From: Myxococcales bacterium
GTDB lineage: Bacteria; Myxococcota_A; Bradymonadia; UBA7976; UBA1532
Reading direction: 5' to 3'
Length of the DNA stretch: 64,000 nucleotides
NCBI GenBank assembly: GCA_020633465.1
Contig: JACKDN010000006.1
Location: 111,047 to 175,046, forward strand
Shown: piece by piece, positions 51,646 to 56,791 of the stretch
Layout of the letters: each line of letters opens with the position of its first letter
Position numbering within the stretch: the stretch's first letter is position 1
Translations under genes and position numbers: made by a program
The notes under the pieces: generated by a model
Databases searched by the model: none
What the model was told of the DNA's origin: nothing
Seen by the model: the letters and a program-made list of their open reading frames with translations, nothing else

Positions 51646-51854
51646 GACACGGCGTGGAGCTCCGATGCGTTGGTTGATCGAAGCCGGTGTGTTCGGCCCG
51701 GACTACGCGCCGCGGATGACCGCGGCGGTCGAGGCCGCGGGCGGGTCGGTCGGTCGGTCGAGGGAGACGGTGCACACCGATGAACGCCCCGCCGCCCATC
51801 GGGACGGGCCCCGGTCAACGCGGGTCGCCCACTTCAGACCGAGGAGTCGCTCCC

Positions 51855-52286
51855 ATGCAACGCACCGATGAGCCCGTCCACCAGGGGGGTTGCCTGTGCG
51901 GCGCGGTGCGATTCGAAGTCACCGGCCCCTTCGACGCCTTCATGCTCTGTCACTGCTCCCGCTGCCGCCGTGACACCGGGAGCGTCCACGCCGCGAACCT
52001 GTTCTCCGGATCCGCCACGCTCCGCTGGGCTTCGGGTGGCCGACTGGTGCGCTCGTTTCGTCTCGCTGGGACCCGGCACGAGCGAGCCTTCTGCGGGCAG
52101 TGTGGCGCGGCCGTCCCGTCGGTGCAGATGGAGGGGGCGCTGCTCGTGGTCCCTGCGGGCAGCCTCGACGAGACGGACCGCCTGCCGCCCCCGACGCACA
52201 TCTTCTGCGCCGACGCCGCCGCGTGGGAGCCAGGCGTCGCCGCCGCGCCGCGGTTCGCGAAGCTGCCGACGGACGAGGTCGGCTGA
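51855..52286 (+). CDS. GFA (glutathione-dependent formaldehyde-activating/CENP-V) family protein
   Basis: GGCLCGAVRFEV...CHCSRCRR...FCGQCG zinc motifs. GAGGAG RBS. Confidence 0.8.
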   Translation: MQRTDEPVHQGGCLCGAVRFEVTGPFDAFMLCHCSRCRRDTGSVHAANLFSGSATLRWASGGRLVRSFRLAGTRHERAFCGQCGAAVPSVQMEGALLVVPAGSLDETDRLPPPTHIFCADAAAWEPGVAAAPRFAKLPTDEVG

Positions 52287-52518
52287 CCGCCTCCGAGGGG
52301 GCCGGGCGCCAGGTCGTGAGACCCGGGTGAACGCGAACCAGGGGTCAGGACGATCGCATTTCGCATTTCGGCCCCCGCGACGGCCGCAGGCCGCCGATTG
52401 GCCGCCCTCCCACGGGGTGCACTCCCAAGCAAGCCCACGGCGATCGACCGGGAGTCGCTGAACGGGACCCTGCATCCTGGCGGTTGAGCTTCCGGCCCCC
52501 ACCCCCCACCATGCGCCC

Positions 52519-52740
52519 ATGAACCTGCAGCAGATCACCGACGACCTCGTCGCCGACCTCGCGCCCCTCGACTTCGGGCCGCCGGTCACGCACGTCTACA
52601 ACCCGCTGACCTACGCGCGCGCCGTGTGGGACGCGTACTGCGAACGCTTAGGGCGCGGGCCGCGCGAGGCGCTGCTGATCGGGATGAACCCCGGTCCGGT
52701 CGGGTCCCATTGGGATGCGGCGCAGGCAGGTCGTCTGTGA
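52519..52740 (+). pseudogene. SMUG1-type uracil-DNA glycosylase, N-terminal 62-codon fragment
   Basis: 75% aa / ~80% nt identical to the start of 53162..53869, including an identical 26-mer (52583..52608 = 53225..53250). Ends right after GMNPGP. Confidence 0.6.
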
Positions 52741-53165
52741 CCGGCTTCATTGGCGTCGATGTCCTCGTCGCGCACCCGCTGAGCGATCTTGGGCCGCTTC
52801 GGACGGCACTTGCCGCAGCGACAGGTGTTCCGGTCGAGCGTGTCGCTTGCATCTGCCAGATCGACGACTACCCAAGCCCAGATGATGCCGGGGTCGTTTG
52901 CGTGGTTACCCGAGGGACTGGCGAGTTCCCGACGCTCCTTTCCGTAGACGCCCGAGAGGGGCATGGACAGGAGCCGGTGTCGTTTGTTGCCCGCGTTGCT
53001 GCTGCACTCCAAGCCCCCTGCCTGTTCGGGACAGAAGACCCGAACCCCTTCGCGATGTATCGAGTGGAAGCCGGTCAGCCTATTCGCCGAGTGTTCTTGG
53101 ACCCGCAGGCGGAATCTGCGGGTGAGTACACCCTCGCCATTGAGTCCGAGGAGGGACAGCCGTGA
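52737..53165 (+). CDS. small acidic protein of unknown function (142 aa), translationally coupled at both ends
   Basis: GTG start overlaps the stop of the SMUG1 fragment (GTGA); its stop overlaps the GTG start of intact SMUG1 (GTGA). GC ~60%, lower than neighbours. Confidence 0.45.
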   Translation: MTGFIGVDVLVAHPLSDLGPLRTALAAATGVPVERVACICQIDDYPSPDDAGVVCVVTRGTGEFPTLLSVDAREGHGQEPVSFVARVAAALQAPCLFGTEDPNPFAMYRVEAGQPIRRVFLDPQAESAGEYTLAIESEEGQP

Positions 53166-53869
53166 GCCTCAAGCAGATCACCGACGACCTCATCACAGAC
53201 CTCGCCGGGCTCACGTTCGGCCCACCGGTCACGCACGTCTACAACCCGCTCATCTACGCCCGTACCGCATGGGACGCCTACTGCGAGAAGTACGGCCAGG
53301 GGCGGCGTGAGGTGCTGATGATCGGGATGAATCCTGGACCTTGGGGGATGAGTCAGTGTGGCGTGCCCTTCGGCGAGGTGGGCCACGTACGCGACTGGAT
53401 GGGCATCGACGCGCCCATCGGCAAGCCGCCGGTCGAGCATCCAAAGCGGCCGGTGCAGGGCTTCGACTGCACGCGCAGCGAGGTGAGCGGGGCGCGGCTC
53501 TGGGGGTGGGCGAAGGACACCTTCGGCGCGCCCGAGGCGTTCTTCGAGCGCTTCTTCGTGGCCAACTACTGCCCCCTCGTCTTCATGGAAGACAGCGGGC
53601 GCAACCGGGTGCCCGAGAAGCTGCCCAAGGCCGAGCGCACGCCGATGTTCGCGGCGTGTGATCGTGCGCTGCGAAGGACCATCGAGCACTTCGCGCCGCG
53701 CTACGTCATCGGCGTGGGCAAGTTCGCCGAGAAGAAGGCGCGGCAGATCGCGGACGATCTGGACGTGATCATCGGCAGCGTCCCCCACCCCAGCCCGGCC
53801 AGCCCGCTGGCGAACCAGGGGTGGGCGCCGCTGATGGACGCGGCGCTGGCCGACCTGGGGGTGCGGTGA
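53162..53869 (+). CDS. uracil-DNA glycosylase, SMUG1 family (UDG family 3)
   Basis: GMNPGPWGMSQCGVPFG signature and conserved HPSP motif near the C-terminus. Hairpin TCCTCGtcggCGAGGA downstream. Confidence 0.85.
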   Translation: MSLKQITDDLITDLAGLTFGPPVTHVYNPLIYARTAWDAYCEKYGQGRREVLMIGMNPGPWGMSQCGVPFGEVGHVRDWMGIDAPIGKPPVEHPKRPVQGFDCTRSEVSGARLWGWAKDTFGAPEAFFERFFVANYCPLVFMEDSGRNRVPEKLPKAERTPMFAACDRALRRTIEHFAPRYVIGVGKFAEKKARQIADDLDVIIGSVPHPSPASPLANQGWAPLMDAALADLGVR

Positions 53870-54066: not shown

Positions 54067-55209
54067 GTGCCCAGCAACAGTCTCGCCGGGAGGATGTTCG
54101 ATCGAGCCGCGGCCCTGGCGCTCCAGGACGCTCTGCCTCGACTCGCTGGCCTGCCCACCGAACGACTCGAGGCGATTCGCGCGGGCGCGTCCTTCTCGGC
54201 CGTCGAGTTCGAGGCCCTATGTAGGGCGCTGGCCGTCGATCCCGCAGCGATGTACCGCGGCGAGGACGCGCAGCCGGAGCGAATTCCGACCCGCTTCCGG
54301 ACAGCGATGGTCTCCGAGCATCCGTCCGGCGACGATCTTCGCCTGCTCGCGCTGGCCGTCGAGCAGGGTCGCATCCTCGGGCACCTGATCCAGCAACTCG
54401 GACGAACGGTGCGGGTGCAGGACGGCCGCGAGATTCGCCCACCCGAGGGCCCACGGGAAACGTGGCGCGAAGGCTACCAGTTGGGCGAACGAGCGCGAGA
54501 TGCACTGCGCATTCTGCCTGGGCCGCTCACCGACCTCGACGCCGTGCTCAGGGACTGCGGGGCACACGTGGCCCGCGTCGCGATGACCTCGACAGCGATC
54601 GACGGTGCCTCGATCTGGGAGCCGGGGGCGGTCCCCATCATCCTCCTGAACACGAGGGGCCGTCGGTACGGACATCCCGGCGCGGTCCGCGCGACGCTCG
54701 CCCACGAACTCTGCCACCTGCTGCACGACGTCGGTGATCGAAACCTGACCACGCAGGTCTCGTGGGGCGTCGAGGGGACCGGCAATTTCGCCGAGGCCGT
54801 CGAAGTCCGGGCGCGGGCTTTCGCGCCTGCGTTCCTGGCGCCGCCCCCAGGGATTCGACAGTGGCACGGTGCTCTCCCGCGCCGCGTGAGGAGCAAGCCG
54901 AGTAGCCTGGTGAAGGCCATGGCGGAGCACTGGGGACTCTCGTTCGAGGGGGCCGCTTGGCACGCGAAGAACTGCGACCTGCTGGAGGCCGATGTCGCGA
55001 GCGCAATCGCTGCCCGCTCGGGACCCTGGGTCAACCTCGCACGTTTCGAGCCTCGACCCGCGTACCTACCGCTGTCGCAGCTACACCCCGGTCTGCCCGA
55101 GGAGGCAGCGGACATCTGGAAGGGGACGGCGACCGACATCGTGTTGGACGCACTCGACGAGGGGCACATCACGTTGGGCCGAGCCCGTGAACTCCTGACG
55201 TGGAGTTAG
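54067..55209 (+). CDS. XRE-type HTH fused to ImmA/IrrE-family zinc metallopeptidase
   Basis: HTH LAGLPTERLEAIRAGASFSAVEFEALCRAL. HELCHLL (HExxH). GGGAGG RBS. Confidence 0.8.
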   Translation: MPSNSLAGRMFDRAAALALQDALPRLAGLPTERLEAIRAGASFSAVEFEALCRALAVDPAAMYRGEDAQPERIPTRFRTAMVSEHPSGDDLRLLALAVEQGRILGHLIQQLGRTVRVQDGREIRPPEGPRETWREGYQLGERARDALRILPGPLTDLDAVLRDCGAHVARVAMTSTAIDGASIWEPGAVPIILLNTRGRRYGHPGAVRATLAHELCHLLHDVGDRNLTTQVSWGVEGTGNFAEAVEVRARAFAPAFLAPPPGIRQWHGALPRRVRSKPSSLVKAMAEHWGLSFEGAAWHAKNCDLLEADVASAIAARSGPWVNLARFEPRPAYLPLSQLHPGLPEEAADIWKGTATDIVLDALDEGHITLGRARELLTWS

Positions 55210-55383
55210 GAGCCTCCCCACAAAATCCTCCGCGTCGCTGGGCACCGTTCTGCACGTCGATGCCGGCGTTGCGAAGCGCTTGCAATGCGCCGAGTATTGC
55301 TGCGGCTTCGCGCCTTGGCCTCGGCGCGCAGCCCGGCACCCCGCTCGGTCGGAACCTTGTGGGGAAGCACTTAGGAGGACAGG

Positions 55384-55899
55384 TTGCTCACCTGGATCGT
55401 CGATGACGGGCCTCTCGATGATCTGGCGATGGTCGTCGAGGCGAGTTCGATGTCGCGGTGGCCGCGAGGGCGGTTCCGAGTGGCGGCGGCAACCGTAGCG
55501 GGCGCGTCCGGCAATCGGAAGGCACTCTTGGACCATCCAGACTCACCATTCGATCCGTTCTCGGTGTCGATGGACAGCGAAGCCGCGGACGTGCTGTACA
55601 GCCATCTTCGGCAACCCAGCACCTCGGACAAGAACCTCGCCGAGCACGAGTCGATCGCGTGGGCGATCACGGCGTGTCCGAACGCCATCCTGGTGGCTCG
55701 CGACAAGCGAGCGGCGTTTCAGGCGCTCGCGGAACTCGGCCGGGGCGGCGCGGCTCATCCCTCCGAGCTGTGGCTCCACCTGCTCGACGAAGGACACGTC
55801 ACGCCCGAGCAGTTCGCTGACCTCTGCCGGCGAACCAAGCGAGGTGAGCAAAGCGTAGAGATCCCGCTCCGGTGCCAACGACGGCTACCGGGAACATGA
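55384..55899 (+). CDS. PIN-like nuclease-fold protein (candidate toxin partner of the ImmA/IrrE peptidase)
   Basis: WIVDDGPLDDL ... AILVARDKRAAFQA resembles PIN acidic motifs. TTG start with AGGAGGA RBS. Lower-GC codons. Confidence 0.5.
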   Translation: MLTWIVDDGPLDDLAMVVEASSMSRWPRGRFRVAAATVAGASGNRKALLDHPDSPFDPFSVSMDSEAADVLYSHLRQPSTSDKNLAEHESIAWAITACPNAILVARDKRAAFQALAELGRGGAAHPSELWLHLLDEGHVTPEQFADLCRRTKRGEQSVEIPLRCQRRLPGT

Positions 55900-56409: not shown

Positions 56410-56791
56410 CGCGTCCTCCGAACGCCGCGAGGTCCTCGTCCGTCCTCGGGCGCACGCCAACTTGCCTCACGCCAACTTGACTCGAGACAACTTGACTGGA
56501 GGCAACTTGACGACGGTCCTCCCGACTGATGCCGCCGTTGGTCGATCGTCGGGACGAGATGGGCTGCGGGGCCACGCCGCGCGCGCGCCGGATCGGCTGA
56601 CGCGCGGCGCGCGGCTGTGCATCGCGTCAGCGGGCACGTTCACGGACGAGCTGCGCACGCTGGCCGAGGCTGAGGGTGTGTTGCTGCTCGACGCGGGTGC
56701 GCTGCTGCCCGGCTGACCTGGCCGCCGTCGAGGACCGGGGGTCAGGACGATCCCACTTCACCGGGCCGCGGCCCATCGACCTCGCGGACCA

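Follow-up and report, generated by a model that had tools for sequence, protein, structure and literature searches.

The closest described systems to the locus presented here are the toxin-immunity architectures of MuF and Rhs/CDI proteins (PMC5576092, PMC3150448), the orphan modules of Rhs/CDI loci (PMC3150448) and the orphan immunity arrays of the V. cholerae T6SS (PMC5361080). We analysed a 64,000-nucleotide stretch of contig JACKDN010000006.1 from a Myxococcales bacterium (the window; 73.5% GC, native GC3 0.94-0.98), in which a 142-aa acidic ORF lies between a 5′ fragment of SMUG1 and an intact SMUG1 gene. The initial annotation had proposed that this ORF encodes an inhibitor or regulator of uracil-DNA glycosylase (UDG), or one half of an immunity pair with SMUG1. 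Our analysis indicates instead that it is most probably an orphan immunity gene, brought in by recombination that left a SMUG1 stub behind, and not a glycosylase inhibitor. The features of the locus, in order, are:

52519-52704, + strand: displaced SMUG1 5′ stub, codons 1-62 of a second allele, with native-like codon usage
52705-52740, + strand: eleven-codon tail (VGSHWDAAQAGRL and a stop codon), an in-frame fusion to the stub, unrelated to SMUG1
52737-53165, + strand: probable orphan immunity gene of a polymorphic-toxin immunity family (142 aa), assigned by a family profile match
53162-53869, + strand: intact SMUG1, a family-3 uracil-DNA glycosylase (235 aa, GTG start)
54067-55209, + strand: XRE/M78-peptidase gene (RmrA-like antitoxin/regulator; PADLOC RmrA, 8e-10)
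55384-55899, + strand: 171-aa ORF, putative partner of the RmrA-like gene and the last gene of low GC3, with native-like composition from 55939

The intact SMUG1 gene encodes a protein of 235 residues that matches the solved SMUG1 of Geobacter metallireducens (5H93) over its full length (residues 3-234, E 4.6e-87). The GMNPGPWG and HPSPASP motifs are kept and the Pfam UDG model matches at 5e-11. The GTG start overlaps the TGA of the immunity gene, and a GGAGG is located 8-12 nt upstream of the start, within the immunity gene. The upstream fragment consists of 62 codons homologous to 53162-53347 of the intact gene, as had been proposed, with 45 of 62 amino acids identical; nucleotide identity is 76% in a codon alignment and 78% in a blastn match of 181 nt (E 1e-36), rather than the ~80% first given. 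SMUG1 homology ends at 52704, inside catalytic motif 1 (between GMNPGP and WG), which leaves an incomplete catalytic domain of residues 1-62 only; the 3′ remainder of this second SMUG1 is found nowhere in the window. Together with its tail, the stub forms a dead ORF of 73 codons. The differences between the stub and the intact gene are distributed as 10/11/23 over the three codon positions, with most in third positions, as expected for two alleles that have diverged under purifying selection. In addition, the nearest SMUG1 orthologues rank differently by identity to the stub than by identity to the intact copy. These two observations rule out a recent tandem duplicate and identify the copies as two alleles. 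The GC3 of the stub (0.95) lies within the range of the neighbouring chromosomal genes (0.94-0.98), and the stub looks like the resident SMUG1 allele, displaced on entry of DNA of lower GC.

The identical 26-mer shared by the two copies, reported previously, is present exactly twice in the window (52582-52607 and 53225-53250). Versions of it with 1-3 mismatches occur in 18 of the 80 SMUG1 orthologue loci, including loci of other phyla; it therefore reflects motif conservation and codon bias rather than a recombination core; on the same grounds it was rejected as an att core. The tail has a GC3 of 0.50, and its TGA (52738-52740) overlaps the GTG of the immunity gene. It possibly represents the last codons of a lost toxin gene. 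Its WDAAQAG segment resembles the C-termini of the toxins described below (WTAAQGG, WSAAQ), a likeness that is suggestive only and not significant by shuffling, with 10-15% of shuffled tails scoring equally well.

The 142-aa ORF has a calculated pI of 4.28, with 20 Asp/Glu versus 8 Lys/Arg residues, and a GC content of 63.6% (~4 and ~60%, respectively, in the initial annotation); its GC3 is 0.66. An exhaustive HMMER search, the only search that exposed the family, returned 93 homologues at E ≤ 1e-3; most are stand-alone and ~137 aa long. The family profile matches the ORF over its full length (E 4e-44), the GTG start aligns with the N-termini of the homologues and the near-invariant residues Gly62, Phe64, Leu96 and Pro104 are all present. 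The AlphaFold2 (AF2) model has a pLDDT of 92.4 and a pTM of 0.86. The homologues, the full-length profile match and the confident model establish the ORF as a real gene, as had been assumed. An antisense ORF (52611-53012) with slightly higher GC3 was considered as the gene and rejected, since the plus-strand ORF has the full-length family match and the confident fold. The family is acidic throughout, with a median pI of 4.4 and 73 of 78 members below 5. It has no match in Pfam, NCBIfam, PADLOC or PHROGs. A word-indexed protein search returned nothing for the single ORF and six proteins only for an alignment of 79 sequences, and two scans of metagenome contigs for the family found nothing. Viral contigs scanned with the immunity alignment likewise gave nothing, whereas a scan with the toxin alignment did yield matches. 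A Foldseek search of the immunity model against the PDB and BFVD gave no match at E ≤ 1e-3, and the family profile gave nothing below E 0.05 against PDB sequences. Rfam and consensus promoter and terminator scans were also negative.

The genomic context of the homologues points to the function of the family. In about nine independent loci, a family member lies directly downstream of one C-terminal toxin domain of ~110 aa:

L081/L082: MuF phage protein with immunity ORF, ATGA overlap in L081, found from immunity homologues
L083/L084: unknown N-terminus beside an EndoU toxin, ATGA overlap in L083, found from immunity homologues
L090: Rhs core end with immunity gene, ATGA overlap, found from immunity homologues
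L091: DUF4157/eCIS_core protein with immunity gene, ATGA overlap, found from immunity homologues
P0032: fused toxin-immunity read-through, found from immunity homologues
L096/L097: immunity-family ORF directly downstream, found from toxin homologues
L098/L099: immunity-family ORF directly downstream, 4-bp overlap by coordinates, found from toxin homologues
L101-L103: phage contigs with immunity-family ORF directly downstream, found from toxin homologues

By contig look-up, the ATGA overlap is present in four of six sequence-distinct pairs (L081, L083, L090 and L091). The putative toxin domain is characterized by the motif INGRxYG...YPxSGPGFHxLxRxxxxALGxxN and is basic (median pI 9.6; 43 of 51 above 8). 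It is carried by Phage_Mu_F proteins, by an Rhs core ending in '...DPTGL', by eCIS_core/DUF4157 proteins, by short stand-alone forms and by a protein named 'filamentous hemagglutinin' by its source. Four distinct phage contigs (L081/L082, which is the same phage as L100, and L101-L103) encode proteins of ~460-510 aa that end in the domain; among these, Pfam confirms Phage_Mu_F for L081/L082 alone. The toxin domain itself is without a Pfam match, and its model gave no significant fold match in the PDB. The toxin profile matches nothing in the window; the cognate toxin is absent beside the window copy, which has the SMUG1 stub upstream instead and is thus classed as an orphan. Other copies are orphans as well: L093-L095 lie between pnp and a NUDIX hydrolase gene, L092 in an Rhs array, L086 next to an IS110 transposase, and L089 is a further case. 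The homologue L085 sits between ~100-nt repeats in a cassette-like arrangement.

SMUG1 was not found beside any other immunity-family locus among those examined (L081-L091 and the later gene tables), and in 80 SMUG1 loci the immunity gene never occurs upstream. We accordingly read SMUG1 as a bystander or landing site rather than as the acidic protein's partner. Of the earlier claim of a co-translated partner, the arrangement for coupled translation stands, but the partner of the family is the toxin domain and never SMUG1; 'immunity' was likewise correct in the toxin sense but not as immunity paired with SMUG1.

Composition changes along the locus, with GC3 values of 0.95 for the stub, 0.66 for the immunity gene, 0.91 for SMUG1, 0.80 for the RmrA-like gene and 0.76 for the 171-aa ORF, compared with 0.96 for the gene that follows. 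The RmrA-like gene also matches Pfam Peptidase_M78 (7.7e-8) and the NCBIfam spr1629 antitoxin model (1.3e-6), and is probably part of an imported or accessory island, outside the stub-immunity-SMUG1 unit. The 171-aa ORF has no match in Pfam, NCBIfam or PHROGs and a weak PADLOC match to Cas11a (E 0.0045). When 54067-55899 was checked as a RosmerTA system, the RmrA models matched at 8e-10 and the adjacent 171-aa ORF matched no RmrT model. No recombinase or integrase gene is present among the annotated neighbours (~42.5-62.8 kb), and the window contains no phage genes or MuF protein. The coordinates bear out the GTGA coupling noted earlier: at the stub/immunity junction as well as the immunity/SMUG1 junction, stop and start codons overlap within a GTGA. 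The chance expectation for two in-frame overlaps of 4 nt is about one in nine, so selection on coupling may still have played a part.

We propose the following origin for the arrangement. Members of the family would normally be coupled in translation to the basic C-terminal toxin domain directly upstream, and the immunity protein would bind and block a toxin delivered by a competitor or phage, by analogy with characterized toxin-immunity pairs; the acidity of the family opposite a basic toxin domain is consistent with such neutralization. Donor DNA from a related lineage would have carried a toxin 3′ end, the immunity gene, SMUG1 and possibly the RmrA-like pair downstream, and would have entered through homologous recombination at the right end and illegitimate recombination at the left. 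At the left, donor and resident DNA would meet within codon 62 of the resident gene, no more than 32 nt before the immunity gene starts, and the resident 5′ end would have been left as the dead 73-codon stub together with the resident upstream region. An insertion or replacement of ~640 bp at the SMUG1 5′ end, as suggested from the outset, is in keeping with this, the foreign segment being ~640 bp or longer. The left GTGA would correspond to the usual toxin-immunity overlap of the family, with GTGA in place of ATGA. On the right, SMUG1 itself starts (A/G)TGA, so that any ORF reading into it in that frame from upstream meets a stop codon. The overlaps would allow the stub, immunity gene and SMUG1 to be read as a coupled operon and would keep SMUG1 expressed. 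The donor arrangement, the empty site and the island boundaries we infer from composition only; the best match to SMUG1 reaches 81% identity without synteny to the window, the closest relatives found by SMUG1 are metagenome-assembled genomes, and among the 80 SMUG1 loci there is no flanking gene in common with the window, no empty site and no donor arrangement.

An unlikely alternative is the entry of a circular or cassette-like piece of ~643 bp, on which a toxin tail and the immunity gene were followed by codons 1-62 of a foreign SMUG1. A single crossover of Campbell type in the SMUG1 5′ region would turn the intact gene into a hybrid, with its N-terminus foreign and its C-terminus resident, and the RmrA-like pair would be a separate insertion. 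The two SMUG1 copies repeat at a distance of exactly 643 bp and lose homology at the same codon, A/T-ending codons cluster at this boundary (AAT CCT GGA CCT) and the L085 homologue lies between repeats. GC3 is also lower in codons 1-62 of the intact gene (0.855) than in the rest (0.93), but the shift is not significant (Fisher p 0.12). Furthermore, the same order of orthologues (L001>L002>L003>L004) is obtained with the N-terminal part of the intact gene as with its C-terminal part, and a different one with the stub; GC3 and segment identity together do not distinguish a wholly imported gene from a hybrid. The absence of a recombinase gene among the annotated neighbours (~42.5-62.8 kb) and the conservation of the 26-mer in other SMUG1 genes also argue against such a crossover, as does the 77% identity over 186 bp, which makes a poor substrate for homologous recombination.

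It is improbable that selection has joined the immunity gene to SMUG1 as a functional module. In such a module, toxin damage to bases or nucleotides, by deamination for instance or another modification, would make it beneficial to co-express the blocker with a repair or sanitizing enzyme. The coupling to SMUG1 in the window is tight, a second orphan (L093-L095) lies 6 nt upstream of the NUDIX hydrolase gene and the toxin domain is basic, a frequent property of toxins that target nucleic acids. SMUG1 and NUDIX are, however, two anecdotal neighbours among ~14 loci, and the other contexts include a phage scaffold protein, an EndoU toxin, a Ser/Thr kinase, IS110 and an Rhs array. The conserved columns of the toxin domain contain no deaminase-type H(A/C)E...PCxxC motif, the domain has no fold match, and the stub marks the SMUG1 junction as a recombination scar. 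There is a slim prospect that the toxin damages DNA bases or the nucleotide pool and that orphan immunity genes are preferentially kept in operons with repair or sanitizing enzymes as a two-layer 'block and repair' defence (SMUG1 here, NUDIX in L093-L095), which, if true, would link interbacterial toxins to base-excision repair; in a weaker variant, the acidic protein may have a second role in modulating SMUG1.

The original proposal, in which the acidic protein would inhibit or regulate the neighbouring SMUG1 as a DNA mimic similar to Ugi or p56, is very improbable. The protein is small, acidic (pI 4.3) and coupled to a gene of the UDG superfamily. However, the recurrent partner of the family in about nine loci is a polymorphic-toxin C-terminal domain and never SMUG1, none of the 80 SMUG1 loci carries the ORF, and the acidity is family-wide and explained by the basic toxin partner. 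The structure prediction suggested as a check gave a confident model that resembles no solved or viral structure, and there is no sequence likeness to Ugi, p56 or SAUGI. Known DNA-mimic UDG inhibitors act on family-1 UNG, and SMUG1 is insensitive to Ugi. Finally, a mis-join of two strain haplotypes of the SMUG1 locus during assembly is scarcely credible: the two copies do look like alleles of related lineages and the closest relatives found are metagenome-assembled genomes, but the left joint has no shared k-mer and just a few bases of microhomology, a mis-join through the 26-mer would yield a hybrid gene and a different layout, and reading frames and start/stop overlaps are kept at both junctions.

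With the 142-aa ORF read as an orphan immunity gene, the locus provides a clean example of such a gene planted in a housekeeping operon, where it would borrow the upstream region of the operon while the downstream gene would stay translated via the stop/start overlaps. A false lead, the 142-aa protein as a SMUG1 inhibitor, is thereby removed. The toxin and immunity domains constitute a pair outside Pfam, NCBIfam, PHROGs and PADLOC that is spread over MuF phages, Rhs proteins, DUF4157 proteins and stand-alone toxins, with confident structure models for both partners and a solved relative for neither.

Compared with known systems, the window protein resembles Ugi (PBS1/2), p56 (phi29) and SAUGI in being small, acidic and a neighbour of a UDG-superfamily enzyme, and differs from them in sequence and fold, in having a toxin rather than a glycosylase as the partner of its family and in having the family-3 SMUG1 as its neighbour. 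As with integrative elements that rebuild their target, a diverged partial target copy flanks the insert and the gene stays intact; unlike these elements, the insert has no integrase nearby and is at most a few kilobases without mobility genes, and unlike an att duplication, the only stretch that is identical in both copies is a motif that SMUG1 genes of other phyla also conserve. The phage members of the toxin family share with MuF polymorphic toxins (PMC5576092) a C-terminal toxin domain followed at once by an immunity ORF, whereas the window lacks phage genes and a MuF protein and the C-terminal domain is one that Pfam does not recognize. The strongest correspondence is with orphan immunity genes: a small acidic family directly 3′ of a variable C-terminal toxin domain, a toxin domain on several unrelated delivery N-termini, copies without a toxin, horizontal acquisition and a possible remnant of an effector 3′ end. 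As a point of difference, neither the toxin family nor the immunity family has an entry in Pfam, NCBIfam, PHROGs or PADLOC. In contrast to the Rhs/CDI and T6SS orphans, the window copy has been wedged into a housekeeping gene for DNA repair, at its 5′ end, and the remnant left beside it is the 5′ stub of that gene rather than a displaced toxin 3′ end.

The locus around SMUG1 in the window (GC content 73.5%) is arranged as follows, with GC3 to be read against 0.94–0.98 in neighbouring chromosomal genes.

51780–52286 (+), gene immediately preceding the stub, of the GFA family (glutathione-dependent formaldehyde-activating enzyme-like); GC3 0.85, somewhat under its neighbours
52519–52704, partial SMUG1 (stub); GC3 0.95
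52737–53165 (+), 142-aa ORF (pI 4.28, GC 63.6%); GC3 0.66
53162–53869, intact SMUG1 gene, 235 aa; GC3 0.91 (0.855 in codons 1–62 and 0.93 after)
54067–55209 (+), RmrA-like gene, 380-aa XRE/M78-peptidase protein; GC3 0.80, below the chromosome's
55384–55899 (+), 171-aa ORF after the RmrA-like gene, no family match; GC3 0.76, also below the chromosome's
55939 onwards, next gene; GC3 0.96

The stub belongs to a 73-codon ORF that starts with ATG at 52519 and whose codons 1–62 are homologous to codons 1–62 of the intact gene, with 45 of 62 amino acids identical and nucleotide identities of 76% in the codon alignment and 78% over 181 nt (blastn E 1e-36, tblastn E 5e-27). The homology breaks off within the catalytic motif (GMNPGP/WG, broken at the slash) and is followed by 11 unrelated codons up to a TGA at 52738–52740. 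This stop is overlapped by the GTG at 52737 that starts the 142-aa ORF, the TGA of which (53163–53165) overlaps the GTG start of the intact gene. The 235-aa product aligns with the solved SMUG1 of Geobacter metallireducens (5H93) with an E value of 4.6e-87 over residues 3–234, retains both signature motifs and is a bona fide SMUG1; no second SMUG1 3' part was found across the window. The initial annotation had described a SMUG1 5' fragment and an acidic ORF with GTG/TGA overlaps at both ends, and coordinates, blastn/tblastn and pI bear this out. The identical 26-mer that it reported in the two SMUG1 copies is present, but codes for the conserved PVTHVYNPL motif. Of 80 loci with a SMUG1 orthologue, 18 have it with 1–3 mismatches, some of these in other phyla, and it is uninformative about a crossover site.

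The 142-aa ORF has no match in curated family libraries or in a word-indexed protein search. HMMER, run exhaustively against 1.84 billion representative sequences, returned 93 homologues at E ≤ 1e-3 (16 at E ≤ 1e-10), almost all of them stand-alone proteins of 130–145 aa that align with the window ORF end to end. A profile from 79 homologues matches the ORF with E 4e-44 across positions 1–131, and GTG 52737 aligns with the initiator Met of the homologues (VTGFIGVDV in the window; MSISGVDV and MIVFEGVDV elsewhere). Structure prediction, suggested in the initial annotation, gave a confident α/β AlphaFold2 model with the family alignment (pLDDT 92.4, pTM 0.86). The ORF is a real gene, and its family is conserved. 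Owing to the profile match, the aligned start and the confident model, both an antisense ORF and an extended 179-aa version were rejected as the gene.

Homologues of the ORF occur in the following settings, the last two lines having been reached from homologues of the toxin domain described below.

L081/L082, 4-nt overlap with the 3' end of the gene for a Phage_Mu_F protein of 492 aa, in a phage head module
L083/L084, overlap with the 3' end of a gene whose product has at least 319 aa; an EndoU toxin gene adjoins
L090, overlap with the end of a protein with an Rhs core terminus (RYYAPWLGRW...DPTGL)
L091, after a frameshifted DUF4157/eCIS_core protein
P0032, 767-aa read-through in which a DUF4157-type toxin continues into the immunity ORF
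L096/L097 and L098/L099, toxin-domain genes, each with an immunity-family ORF directly downstream
L101–L103, three more phage contigs; ~470-aa proteins with the toxin domain C-terminally, then an immunity-family ORF

The upstream proteins in L081–L084, L090, L091 and P0032 have in common a C-terminal domain of ~110 aa, the toxin domain, with the motif ...NT(V/I)xEPxVDVxxDVAAIxxG...(V/I)NGRxYG...YPxSGPGFHxLxRxx(F/Y)xALGxxNxxG... A search with this domain found 174 proteins at E ≤ 1e-3, including many short stand-alone forms and one that its source calls 'filamentous hemagglutinin'; no Pfam domain was seen in any of the 174. About nine independent toxin-to-immunity adjacencies were reached from both search directions, and four of the pairs examined (L081, L083, L090 and L091) overlap by ATGA. 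The immunity family has a median pI of 4.4, with 73 of 78 members below 5, and the toxin domain one of 9.6 (above 8 in 43 of 51); the acidity that had suggested DNA mimicry is a family-wide trait matching a basic toxin partner.

The AlphaFold2 model of the toxin domain (mca1d7b85a464) is confident (pLDDT 94.9) and has no fold match in the PDB; neither Pfam nor PHROG contains a family for the domain, and no solved relative was found. It is widespread, with carriers in Cystobacter fuscus, Tuwongella immobilis, cyanobacteria, Chloroflexi and Acidobacteriota, and the homologues P0097–P0216 are often stand-alone proteins of ~135 aa. In the Myxococcota genome of L096, a 235-aa immunity-family variant (488–1195) with a C-terminal extension of ~110 aa directly follows the toxin domain; its length equals that of SMUG1 by coincidence only.

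The toxin profile has no match in the window. The ORF probably belongs to an uncatalogued polymorphic toxin/immunity family as an orphan immunity gene that was inserted at the SMUG1 5' end, where the resident allele is left as a displaced stub. Other orphans occur in four settings (L093–L095, L092, L086 and L089). The orphan P0006 has pnp on one side and a NUDIX hydrolase gene on the other, 6 nt before the NUDIX start (L093 6001–6902, on a 550-kb chromosomal contig where the NUDIX gene has no 5' duplication; also in L094 and L095), another is within an Rhs array (L092), and P0094 adjoins an IS110 transposase (L086). On contig L085, P0094 (355–780) sits between cassette-like ~100-nt repeats with GC-rich hairpin cores (20–117, 170–268 and 789–888). 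Two orphans, in the window and in L093–L095, thus directly precede nucleic-acid 'sanitising' genes; at two of ~14 loci this is an anecdote, and a meaningful placement is improbable.

The initial annotation had put forward the acidic protein and SMUG1 as a candidate UDG-regulator or immunity pair, with reference to Ugi and p56. Its proposed comparison with orthologous loci found the ORF in 0 of 80 (the best 80 SMUG1 loci out of 185,579 species' genomes), and no SMUG1 was found near the other immunity-family loci examined (L081–L091 and the remaining gene tables). Neither the PDB, where Ugi, p56 and SAUGI are represented, nor BFVD has a significant match to the ORF's AlphaFold2 model, and the family profile finds nothing below E 0.05 among solved chains. 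The known protein inhibitors act on family-1 UNG, and insensitivity to Ugi was part of the definition of SMUG1 activity. A role as UDG inhibitor is therefore unsupported, and the family is paired with toxin domains, not with SMUG1.

The left GTGA overlap fits the usual toxin/immunity overlap of the family (ATGA in the four pairs). The right overlap arises because SMUG1 of this clade starts with (A/G)TGA (ATGAAC in the stub, GTGAGC in the intact gene and ATGAAT in the orthologue locus L005), and therefore an ORF that runs in from upstream in the +1 frame always ends on the SMUG1 start codon. The chance of both joints falling in a coupling-compatible frame is roughly 1 in 9. A GGAGG lies 8–12 nt before the SMUG1 GTG, within the last codons of the immunity gene. 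Selection may plausibly have kept both genes expressed from the upstream region of the resident allele. Scans for consensus promoters and terminators found nothing at the locus and are uninformative here.

The stub and intact SMUG1 differ at 10, 11 and 23 sites in codon positions 1, 2 and 3, the mark of two alleles diverged under purifying selection and not of recent tandem duplication. Intact SMUG1 orders the nearest orthologues alike in its N- and C-terminal parts (L001 > L002 > L003 > L004), and the stub orders them differently. On the most economical reading, DNA with a toxin, the immunity gene and SMUG1, perhaps with the RmrA-like pair too, would have come from a related Myxococcota-like lineage and entered by recombination, with a homologous crossover on the right and an illegitimate joint on the left. 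The latter would connect resident SMUG1 codon 62 to a point ≤32 nt upstream of the immunity start, leaving the resident 5' end stranded as the stub. For orphan immunity arrays, such homology-facilitated illegitimate recombination is a published proposal (PMC5361080). A similarity between the 11-codon tail (…HWDAAQAGRL*) and the C-termini of toxins (…WTAAQGG*, …WSAAQ*) is not significant. It is rather unlikely that a 643-bp piece integrated by a single crossover, making intact SMUG1 a hybrid: the GC3 step at its codon 62 fits but is not significant (p 0.12), and no recombinase is found among the neighbours annotated over ~42.5–62.8 kb.

The RmrA-like pair and the orphan immunity gene share a small accessory stretch of lower GC. 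The RmrA-like protein matches PADLOC RmrA (8e-10), the NCBIfam spr1629 antitoxin and PHROG 2439, and with the 171-aa ORF looks like a possible RosmerTA-like defence or toxin–antitoxin pair. A 31-nt imperfect direct repeat (52332–52362 and 56729–56759) flanks the whole block from the SMUG1 stub through a 156-aa gene; its exact 15-mer GGGGTCAGGACGATC occurs in the window only at these copies, both ~45 nt past a 'GGCTGACC' stop context. With no recombinase nearby, the repeat may be a regulatory motif, a REP-like one or what is left of an old att site. Past the 156-aa gene, four intergenic tandem 15-nt units starting CAACTTG(A/C)C (56458–56517) look like iterons or operators.

The value of the finding lies in the definition of a family and in a tidy example of a horizontal-transfer scar; it would not surprise a specialist. 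Polymorphic toxin architectures have been described for Rhs/CDI toxins (PMC3150448) and MuF toxins (PMC5576092), and the immunity family with its upstream toxin domain has the same architecture as both.
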